IMG/VR virus record: IMGVR_UViG_2675903368_000011
Coordinates: 1-9,729 of that record
Reading direction: 5' to 3' (one strand)
Source of the DNA: a virus
Lineage: Duplodnaviria; Heunggongvirae; Uroviricota; Caudoviricetes
Length of the DNA stretch: 9,729 nucleotides
In this document: in pieces, positions 3,001 to 6,000 of the stretch
How the letters are laid out: each line of letters opens with the position of its first letter
Numbering within the stretch: the stretch's first letter is position 1
Position numbers: made by a program

Positions 3001-6000
3001 CAACAAAAAACTGGTCCGAGACATTTACTGAACGCTGGGTTGCAATGAAGCACATTTTTCTACAGCTTGATAGTGATGCTTTATTGCTTGTGACGAGAAC
3101 ACGTTCAAAACAAAAGGCAGCATTTTTACAGCAAAATATTGCAAAACTGGATTAAAAGCCATATACTTCATGCAAATTTGGTATATTGTAAAAAATGTAT
3201 AAACCCGCTGCCGAGTGGGTTTTTTTTATGCCCTGAGTTGTACTTGTACGGTAAACATGCTGGCTGCTATGTAATAGAGTTTTTTTAGCCTGTAACCTCT
3301 TGACGGCATTGAATTGCTTTTGTTATGAGTTGTAAGCCAATGTTATCATCTTGTATTGGGGTGGTTATGAAGGATGGTGCGCTGCTCAGGAGTTCTTCAC
3401 TTTTTATTGCCTACATGGGATGCCTTGGATGGGGGAGTGCTTATTTCTATGGATGGGGTACTTCTTTTTACTACGGCTTCCCATGGTGGATTGTAGGTGC
3501 AGGTGTTGATGATGTTGCCAGAAGTTTATTTTTTGCAGTTATTGTCATTGCTATATTTCTTATCGGTTGGGGTATTGGTGTTGTATTCTTTTTCGCAGTG
3601 AAAAGAAAACATTCTATGCAAGAGCTAAATGTATTTCGCCTTTATTTTGCTGTGGAATTATTGTTTGTGCCGGCAATTATTGAGTTTTCTATATTGAGAC
3701 AGAAGATTCAGGTACCTCTTTTGCTACTGTCAGCAGCGATTGCGCTGGCGGTTACAATTTCGATAAGATCTTATGGGCGATTTTTATCAGTATCATGCTT
3801 CTATGATAAGCCATTTATAAAAAAACATTTTTTTGAGATTGTGATGATTGCTTTTGTGGCATATTTTTGGCTTTTTTCATTTCTGACAGGATATTACAAA
3901 CCACAGTTTAAGAAAGAATATGAAATGATTAATTATAATGATGGTTGGTATTATGTTCTTGCTCGTTATGATAATTGTCTGGTTTTGTCTACTTCTTTCA
4001 ATGCAGGTAGTAAAAGGTTTGTCATTTATCAATCAGCACAAGATAAGAATCTTCAGGTTGATATTGTAAGGACCAGAATTTAATTGGCTGCATAAATAAT
4101 ATTTTAAGTTGCAAGTTGGCTATTCGTAGGAATAGAACCTTAGGCATGCTGAATGCGTTTTCTGAACATTGTTTTATAAACTGTGTCTGCTTGCTGTTGT
4201 GATCCTGCTTTTAGTGATGGTGATGATGGATTTCACCAGCAGGATAATGTTGGTACTGACAGATGGCGCTCTGGTCTGCGGCATTGTGGTATTGCTGTGG
4301 CCGATGATGAAAGAACAGAATGAATAATTCTTGACTTTTTTGTTTACTGTTTATTAAAAAATCAACCGCATGGTGAATCCTCCTTGGAGGGGCTAAATGA
4401 TCGAGTTTTAAGGGCACGTAGCGAGTTCTGTTTGATCATTGCAGAACTTAGCGGGAGGCGCCATGCGTACATCACTAGTGTTATTCCTTTTATCATTTTC
4501 CTTGTGAGTTCTGGCTGCGCATTGCGCAGCCTTTTTTTTATGACCTGCCACTGGCAGATGGTCATCCTGTGATTTGATTCCGCTTCCGGCTTTTTAACAC
4601 TGTTCCTCTACACGGGAGAAATTCGATGTCGATTAAACATTACGATGTTGTCAGGGCGGCGTCGCCGTCAGACCTTGCGGAAAAGCTGACACACAAACTG
4701 AAAGAGGGCTGGCAGCCATACGGCGGACCGGTTGCCATTACGCCGTACACACTGATGCAGGCGGTGGCTATTGAAGGAGAGCCACAGGTCGGCCCTTCAT
4801 CTGAGCCGGATTGGTACTACGTCATCGTACTGGCCGGGCAGTCCAATGCCATGGCTTACGGTGAAGGGCTTCCGCTGCCGGATTCATACGATGCTCCGGA
4901 TCCGCTCATTAAACAGCTGGCGCGCCGCAGTACAGTGACGCCGGGCGGGGCTGCCTGCAGATATAACGATATTATTCCGGCTGACCACTGTCTGCATGAT
5001 GTGCAGGATATGAGTACGCTGAATCATCCGAGGGCTGACCTGAGCAAAGGGCAGTACGGCTGTGTCGGTCAGGGTTTACATATTGCCAAAAAACTGCTCC
5101 CGTATATCCCGAATAACGCGGGGATCCTGCTGGTACCATGCTGTCGTGGTGGTTCGGCATTTACCCAGGGCGCGGAGGGGACATTCAGCGAGTCCACGGG
5201 GGCCAGTCAGGATTCGGCACGCTGGGGGGTGGGCAAGCCGTTATATCAGGATCTGATTTCCCGCACAAAAGCGGCATTGCAGAAAAATCCCAAAAACGTT
5301 CTGCTGGCCGTCTGCTGGATGCAGGGTGAGTTTGACATGAGCGCCGCCACCCACGCACAGCAACCTGCGCTGTTTACAGCCATGCTGACACAGTTTCGTG
5401 CTGACCTCTCCGTGTTTAACGCGCAGTGCCATGGTGGCAGTGCTGCAGATGTGCCGTGGATTTGTGGTGACACGACGTATTACTGGAAAAATACATACGC
5501 TACCCAGTACGACACCGTGTACGGCGGGTATAAAAACAGGGAGAGTGAGGGCGTTTATTTTGTGCCCTTCATGACAGAAACCCGCCGTACTTCAAAGTGA
5601 AACCCGAGGGCTGGGATAACCAGTGGGCGGGTGATGAAGATTACCTGAAGTGGCTGGACCAGTGTCTTGCGCAGTTCTGGCGGGTGCTGAAACCTGCCGG
5701 AAGTCTTTACCTGTTCTGTGGCCATCGTCTGGCATCTGACACCGAAATCATGATGCGTGAGCGGTTTAACGTGCTGAACCATATCATCTGGGCAAAGCCG
5801 TCCGGACGCTGGAACGGGTGCAACAAGGAAAGCCTGCGGGCGTATTTCCCCGCCACAGAGCGCATTCTGTTCGCAGAGCATTATCAGGGGCCGTATCGTC
5901 CGAAAGATGCCGGGTATGAGGCGAAGGGTAGGGCACTGAAACAGCATGTGATGGCCCCGCTGATTGCTTACTTTCGTGATGCGCGCGCTGTCCTGGGGAT

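Follow-up and report, generated by a model that had tools for sequence, protein, structure and literature searches.

The window analyzed here, a stretch of 9,729 nucleotides (nt) that spans positions 1 to 9,729 of the IMG/VR virus record IMGVR_UViG_2675903368_000011 (Caudoviricetes), is the late-regulatory region of one or more lambdoid prophages of Escherichia coli. It carries two diverged modules, in each of which a short open reading frame (ORF) for a hydrophobic peptide lies directly against a promoter-like block and a terminated leader. An earlier note on this DNA had drawn attention to the two ORFs and had speculated that they encode a holin/antiholin-like or toxin-like peptide. We find that both are, almost certainly, copies of tciB, a real gene of the known DUF3927 family. 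Our overall statement, namely that these are catalogued tciB genes for a small membrane peptide with TciA as its proposed partner and not for a holin, is probably correct. The features on which it is built are the following.

4169–4327, plus strand: tciB copy A, 52 amino acids (aa), TTG start, TAA stop at 4325–4327
4331–4380, plus strand: late-promoter-like block A, with the -35 hexamer TTGACT at 4331–4336, TTATTAAAAA at 4351–4360 and GCATGGTGAATCC at 4368–4380 in the early transcribed region
4338–4542, plus strand: leader A, STnc100/PasD-like, with a terminator stem at 4513–4531 and a T-run
6998–7430, plus strand: tciA-like pseudogene of the TerB family
7427–7594, plus strand: tciB copy B, 55 aa, GTG start, TGA stop at 7592–7594
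7591–7640, plus strand: late-promoter-like block B, with the -35 hexamer TTGATT at 7591–7596 overlapping the tciB stop, TTATTAAAAA at 7611–7620 and GCATGGTGAATCC at 7628–7640
7599–7822, plus strand: leader B, of the STnc100 small RNA (sRNA) family, with a terminator stem at 7796–7814 and a T-run

Both copies are intact open frames, encode a peptide with two hydrophobic segments and share exactly the core DFTSRIM-VL-DG-LVCGIVVLLWP, all as previously described. The start proposed at that time for copy A, position 4199, is however an internal in-frame GTG; the family alignment, in which K4 and L5 are conserved, places the start at TTG 4169. An 18-codon upstream ORF, running from ATG 4146 to TGA 4200–4202, overlaps GTG 4199 as GTGA, and termination-reinitiation at this site would yield a 42-aa product without most of the first hydrophobic segment. 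We considered GTG 4199, coupled to this upstream ORF (4146–4202), as the start of copy A and rejected it, since family conservation reaches codon 4 of the TTG-4169 frame. Copy B is preceded by GGAG at 7415–7418, 8 nt 5′ of its GTG, and its start overlaps the stop of the upstream ORF (7428–7430) as GTGA. The ribosome-binding site and the coupling that the earlier note had seen for copy B are thus present, but the coupled upstream gene is a TerB-like pseudogene here. The length of the ORFs is by itself unremarkable in a window that holds 104 ORFs of at least 30 aa.

To assign the two peptides to a family, profile and database searches were evaluated. Pfam DUF3927 (PF13064), with a curated gathering threshold of 25 bits, was matched by copy A with 53 bits (E 3e-14) and by copy B with 62.6 bits (E 3e-17). 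The PHROG family phrog_1470, termed 'TciB-like', was matched with E-values of 2.5e-17 and 5.6e-30, respectively. RefSeq holds a 'DUF3927 family protein' at the coordinates of copy A (WP_000499454.1) and another one that corresponds to copy B in a locus of 100% identity (WP_000216653.1), and the record of phage 434 names the copy A gene TciB. PF13064 was carried by 120 of the 120 matches listed, out of 225 protein-database matches. Nothing scored above cut-off in NCBIfam, where the sub-threshold entry 'podovir_small' reached 16 bits versus 32. The family signature reads [KR]-x-R, 14 hydrophobic residues, D-F-T-S-[RK], x-x-S-x-x-x-D-G, ~11 hydrophobic residues and W-P-x-x-K-K; both copies bear all signature residues (D21, S28, D32, W-P and the basic tail) at a length of ~50–55 aa. 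Clustering at 50% identity leaves 113 clusters of this small family in a set of 1.84 billion representatives, and nearly all of its members measure 50–60 aa. Genuine TerB-TciB fusions were not found among these representatives; the long matches P0131, P0170 and P0171 were considered as natural fusions and discarded, as they look like frameshifted or chimeric gene calls. The name tciB stems from phage P1 and was given through the TerB homology of the neighbour TciA. The gene noticed earlier is therefore real, but belongs to an already named family, TciB/DUF3927, which had gone unrecognised. This family is known and correctly annotated, and no new category is needed.

For the analysis of selection, 300 loci were collected from public viral and genome contigs and from phage records, and the homologue was located in each, resulting in 302 places. 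The ORF was intact in 298 of them and 50–55 aa long in 296; a few copies are decayed, e.g., one in Escherichia albertii. In 284 of the 298 loci the start codons coincide in the alignment; the start is GTG in 195, TTG in 86 and ATG in 17. The collection comprises 83 distinct coding sequences for 65 distinct proteins. Among the six frames, the ORF frame showed the lowest median pairwise ratio of nonsynonymous to synonymous substitution rates (dN/dS), 0.157, while four other frames ranged from 0.9 to 2.0. The wobble-sharing (mirror) antisense frame, interrupted by stops in 8 of 82 sequences, gave 0.27–0.36 (median pairwise 0.27). Entropy at codon positions 1, 2 and 3 amounted to 0.56, 0.33 and 1.17. 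In order to limit pseudo-replication, substitutions were counted along a minimum spanning tree of unique sequences. With 78 unique sequences in the tree, 480 of the substitutions were synonymous and 336 nonsynonymous (omega ~0.24), corresponding to a synonymous fraction of 0.59 versus an expected 0.26 (p ~1e-87). The synonymous excess across the 298 loci backs the purifying selection that the earlier note had suggested from the two copies alone, and neither of the refuting outcomes foreseen there was obtained.

The four third-position differences cited at that time (AGG/AGA, ATA/ATC, GTA/GTG and GGC/GGG) are real and lie at codons 25, 26, 29 and 33; a fifth one, CTT/CTG, was found at codon 14. 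Taken alone, the A/B pair is weak evidence, with 5 synonymous versus 18 nonsynonymous codons and a dN/dS of 0.62. By region, dN/dS was 0.22 for codons 21–48 and 1.45 for codons 2–20, and the A/B changes in the first hydrophobic segment replace one hydrophobic residue for another.

These numbers bear on the view that the locus is not a gene at all but promoter-upstream regulatory DNA, such as a UP element or a Q-loading site, or a recent module duplication, with the open frame being incidental. The A and B copies are homologous at the DNA level from about codon 4 onwards, through the promoter and leader into the esterase gene; module duplication alone could thus have accounted for the shared open frame. 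At its 3′ end the ORF touches or runs into the -35 hexamer, its A-rich tail codons might also act as a UP-like region, and the two copies by themselves show a dN/dS of no lower than 0.62. However, substitutions in the larger collection follow codon periodicity, the synonymous excess is strongest in the ORF frame, and profile E-values go down to 5.6e-30. Moreover, the protein is kept in P1, N4-like and Klebsiella-type phages that lack this promoter. We consider non-coding conservation effectively refuted and give next to no credence to an incidental frame. As judged by sequence comparison, the tciB frame is protein-coding and under purifying selection, and its conservation is independent of the adjoining promoter: it is no by-product of that promoter, because many lambdoid prophages, P1 and an N4-like phage have homologues behind a TerB-like gene.

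The adjoining promoter itself lies right at the end of both ORFs. The TAA of copy A ends 3 nt before its -35 hexamer, and the TGA of copy B falls within the -35 hexamer, in line with the earlier observation that the ORF lies directly against a promoter; the transcript is an STnc100 leader. The block TTGAYT - TTATTAAAAA - GCATGGTGAATCC recurs in both copies and is conserved across loci. In the left part of the window, block A is followed by a leader of ~180 nt with the strong terminator at 4513–4531. Leader B matched Rfam RF02076, which has a gathering score of 47, with 101.5 bits over 7599–7771, whereas leader A, with 41.4 bits (E 9e-8), remained below this score. In EDL933, STnc100 copies are transcribed at high abundance and give Northern signals (PMC5331693), and in Salmonella LT2 their promoters are bound by RpoD (PMC10794520). 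A link between STnc100 and the PasD sRNA is drawn in a 2026 preprint. A generic sigma-70 scan did not call the late promoter in either module, because the candidate -10 hexamers (TATTAA and TTAAAA) are without the final T that the scan demands. The promoter is supported by conservation and by the STnc100 literature. The Q gene upstream and the terminator, esterase and lysis genes downstream suggest that it is a Q-dependent late promoter with a terminated leader.

Three side observations concern this region. The STnc100 leaders look like a lambdoid late-promoter leader, an analogue of lambda 6S RNA. The phage 434 record lists a 62-aa 'putative membrane protein' at 4384–4572, within the STnc100-like leader and across the terminator, which is probably not a gene because the A/B indels there are not multiples of three. 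The K/N-rich C-terminal tail of TciB, its most variable part across the family, is encoded by A-rich DNA 5′ of the -35 hexamer (4300–4336 and 7561–7596, overlapping in copy B); a UP element would be expected there, so that a single stretch of bases may be read as tail codons and also act as DNA upstream of the promoter.

The order of tciB and promoter matters for the proposal of a holin/antiholin-like lysis timer, in which a small two-segment membrane peptide would gate endolysin release. TciB is small, with two hydrophobic segments and a basic C-terminus like many holins, and tciB lies within the Q-to-lysis part of the prophage. Nevertheless, it is located 5′ of the late promoter and its terminator, and so outside the late transcript, while related prophages carry a class II holin, lysozyme and Rz ~2.5 kb downstream, past the esterase gene. 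Pfam and PHROG searches yielded no match to a holin family, the sole matches being DUF3927/TciB. In P1 and in an N4-like phage, tciB resides in the ban early operon and in the early region, respectively, far from lysis genes, and P1 tciA, tciB and tciC are non-essential by CRISPR interference (CRISPRi) knock-down (PMC10695390). With position and family both wrong, and with a TerB-like partner at hand, the holin proposal is disfavoured and seems to us very remote.

The TerB-like partner is the most frequent neighbour of tciB. In 211 of the 298 tciB-anchored loci, a TerB gene lies 5′ of tciB with a start/stop overlap of 4 nt (GTGA/ATGA) or 1 nt; TerB is intact in 158 of these loci and broken in 53. 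Starting from TerB, tciB was directly 3′ in 80 of 80 loci, all from close E. coli relatives, and this result is weak because the scan returned nothing else. Phage P1 has the order tciA (TerB-like), tciB and tciC in the C1-controlled ban operon, and the N4-like phage Pollock carries a TerB-TciB pair in its early region. Klebsiella/Salmonella-type prophages show the order Q-like, TerB and TciB, then holin and endolysin, with a different downstream sequence.

The tciA-like gene of the window matched Pfam TerB (PF05099) with 42.2 bits on conceptual translation. It has an in-frame TAG at 7134–7136, and the frame of ATG 6998 differs from that of the remaining gene (A-run at 7016–7022). RefSeq describes it as 'tellurite resistance TerB family protein, internal stop', with a pseudo-CDS starting at TTG 7002. 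The allele of the window, a 48-aa TerB remnant, was also present in 45 collected loci. In 84 of the 298 loci and in phage 434, a membrane protein of phrog_1521 replaces TerB 5′ of tciB, and in the 84 loci tciB invariably starts with TTG and lacks a Shine-Dalgarno sequence. Neither copy in the window is typical: a stop codon has cost copy B its TerB partner, and copy A lies behind an unrelated multi-pass membrane protein.

At the protein level, TciB is, according to structure prediction, an almost wholly helical hydrophobic peptide of 50–55 residues. Its two hydrophobic runs are split by D-F-T-S-[RK], basic residues are found at both ends, and D21, S28 and D32 are conserved at 95%. AlphaFold2, based on 13 and on 56 sequences, returned a single straight helix covering residues 3–53 with a predicted local distance difference test score of 89–91, in which D21, R25, S28 and D32 lie on one face. 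Such a peptide would insert in the inner membrane and may there anchor the TerB-domain protein TciA or otherwise act as its small membrane partner. The analogy is that TerB is a reported interaction partner of the membrane protein TerC, according to PMC11003894, which cites Turkovicova 2016. Synteny, translational coupling and this TerB-TerC analogy make TciA a conceivable partner, a model we put forward tentatively. The gene tciB would be transcribed from upstream, from a moron promoter or by delayed-early read-through that continues the Q transcript; the late promoter starting at the tciB stop codon would not transcribe it. The function would be accessory and non-essential, acting on the host envelope or physiology and not in lysis.

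Several points weigh against this model. AlphaFold2 predicts one straight 51-residue helix and not a hairpin, and the first hydrophobic run, with 14–16 residues, is short for a membrane span. We infer the TciA-TciB interaction from synteny and coupling, and the source of transcription from position and from the synteny in P1 and N4-like phages. No plus-strand promoter-like site was detected 5′ of copy B in the promoter scan, no Shine-Dalgarno sequence precedes the TTG of copy A, and no experiment on any TciB family member was found in the literature. Within the copy A lineage, there is almost no sequence diversity on which selection could be assessed. An A-type tciB in E. albertii L013 (2879–3019; membrane protein gene 5′, promoter 3′) is decayed after about residue 27 with a repetitive insertion, so that the A-type copy can be lost. 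Furthermore, tciB is intact both where TerB is broken (53 of the 211 loci) and where it is replaced (84 loci); it may act alone there, or decay more slowly as a short ORF.

Acting alone, TciB would be a membrane-active peptide without need of TerB, e.g., a type I-toxin-like growth inhibitor or a factor of superinfection or colicin exclusion. The loci just described, 53 with a truncated TerB and 84 with the other membrane protein instead, are in agreement with this idea, as is the arrangement of D21, R25, S28 and D32 on one helical face, which would suit an oligomeric polar interface. In addition, PHROG files the family under host takeover/moron. On the other hand, the promoter scan revealed no minus-strand promoter-like site overlapping either copy, and an Rfam scan of the window at gathering threshold returned only STnc100 and two tRNAs, all on the plus strand and outside the ORF, and no toxin-antitoxin RNA. 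The defence profiles of PADLOC gave no match for either TciB copy; P1 TciA was not matched either, and the Evi TerB-like protein showed only a weak match to PDC-S48 (E 0.0035). Tight coupling to TerB is seen in most loci and over the widest phylogenetic range, and a short ORF may outlast its broken neighbour by chance. With a TerB-like partner and without such antisense features, the toxin-like peptide of the earlier note was not borne out, and we rate independent action as rather improbable.

A more far-reaching version of the TciA-partner model would be an early membrane module in which TciB oligomerizes via the invariant D21/R25/S28/D32 stripe, and in which the resulting assembly binds or conducts cations, with the TerB domain as its gate or anchor. 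We see slim chances for it. If true, the membrane state of the host would be altered early in infection, e.g., for exclusion or stress protection, and the position of tciB abutting the -35 hexamer would couple its expression to the STnc100 leader and late gene output.

The atypical state of both copies also raises the question of whether the family is real but its two members in the window are non-functional remnants, with copy A being an orphan without ribosome-binding site and copy B orphaned by the broken TerB. Weak expression or functional orphaning is possible for either copy, because the TerB gene before copy B has a stop and because copy A combines a TTG start, no ribosome-binding site and an unrelated neighbour. 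Copy A further contains a recombination junction at codons 2–3, coupling of copy B is lost through the internal stop of TerB, an A-type copy is decayed in E. albertii, and none of 5,426 complete genomes has the junction seen at ~5580 of the window. Still, the two ORFs are widespread and unbroken, with 697 complete E. coli genomes carrying the copy A region and as many as 2,865 that of copy B; copy B retains its own GGAG at proper spacing, and the A-type arrangement is found in the viable phage 434. We regard loss of function in both copies as unlikely.

Apart from the two tciB modules, the window comprises the following features.

155–820: NinI-type phosphatase gene, left part of the window
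1032–1991, minus strand: outer-membrane protein gene, LpxR-like according to the phage 434 annotation
2466–3155, plus strand: antiterminator Q gene (Q82-like), Pfam PF06323 with 307 bits; 'Q82-like' in the phage 434 record, with the same layout
3201–3222: intrinsic terminator after Q
3340–4083, plus strand: multi-pass membrane protein gene, phrog_1521 (E 2e-154); 'hypothetical' or 'putative membrane protein' in RefSeq and phage 434
From 4626: first copy of the DUF1737+SASA esterase gene, left part
5597–6526: 3′ part of a DNA methyltransferase gene, right part
6576–6651 and 6752–6828, plus strand: two tRNA genes, anticodons CAT and TCT (Arg)
Right part, beyond the promoter, leader and terminator (stem 7796–7814), which are arranged as in the left part: full-length esterase gene

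The left-hand layout is matched gene for gene by phage 434, in which the order is that of the copy A module: Q82-like gene, terminator, membrane protein, TciB, esterase and holin. For the membrane protein encoded at 3340–4083, profile searches gave no match in Pfam, NCBIfam or PADLOC. Its gene has a moron-like layout, being preceded by a terminator and promoter-like sites (TTGTTA 3320 to TATCAT 3349). The right-hand layout is matched at 100% identity by strain 14EC007, whose region has an IS421 element between the two tRNA genes. The tRNA with the CAT anticodon is annotated as tRNA-Ile in RefSeq and is probably lysidine-modified.

Homology of the first esterase gene to the second copy ends after 'ttcatgacaga' (~5580), followed by the 3′ part of the methyltransferase gene. 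The junction at ~5580 was spanned nowhere in the 5,426 complete E. coli genomes, where the best matches covered the methylase side only, from query position 281. It represents either a rare recombinant or a chimeric assembly, so that the two tciB modules may not truly be 3.2 kb apart.

Of the 5,426 complete E. coli genomes, 697 contain the copy A region and 2,865 contain parts of the copy B region, at up to 10–15 places per genome. The tciB family is very common in pathogenic E. coli and is also found in P1-like phage-plasmids and N4-like phages. The function of the TerB-like/TciB pair, once known, would fill a gap in the Q-to-late-promoter map of Stx-type prophages.

Among known systems, type I toxins of the HokD type resemble TciB as hydrophobic prophage peptides of ~50 aa, and hokD is present in a related prophage. 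They differ in that neither a Sok-like antisense RNA nor a fold-back mRNA element was detected at tciB, and in that tciB is coupled to an upstream protein gene. The lambdoid class II pinholin S (933W/434 type) is likewise a small two-segment membrane protein in a late-regulatory neighbourhood, but it belongs to another family, tciB lies 5′ of the late promoter, and the true holin is located elsewhere in the same prophages. The TerB-TerC pair of terZABCDE offers an analogy, as a soluble TerB-domain protein appears to be paired with a membrane protein in both cases. However, TciB, with 55 residues, has no detectable similarity to the multi-pass TerC, and no other ter genes are present. Closer is TciB of P1, which shares the profile family, the length, the signature and the place directly behind a TerB-like gene whose stop overlaps the tciB start, at an identity of ~50%. 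P1 has a third tiny gene, tciC, and a C1-controlled early operon with tRNAs, whereas the genes of the window end at a lambdoid late promoter without tciC, and copy A is without TerB. From DUF3927 (PF13064)/TciB of phage 434 there is no difference in kind, and the layout around copy A is alike.

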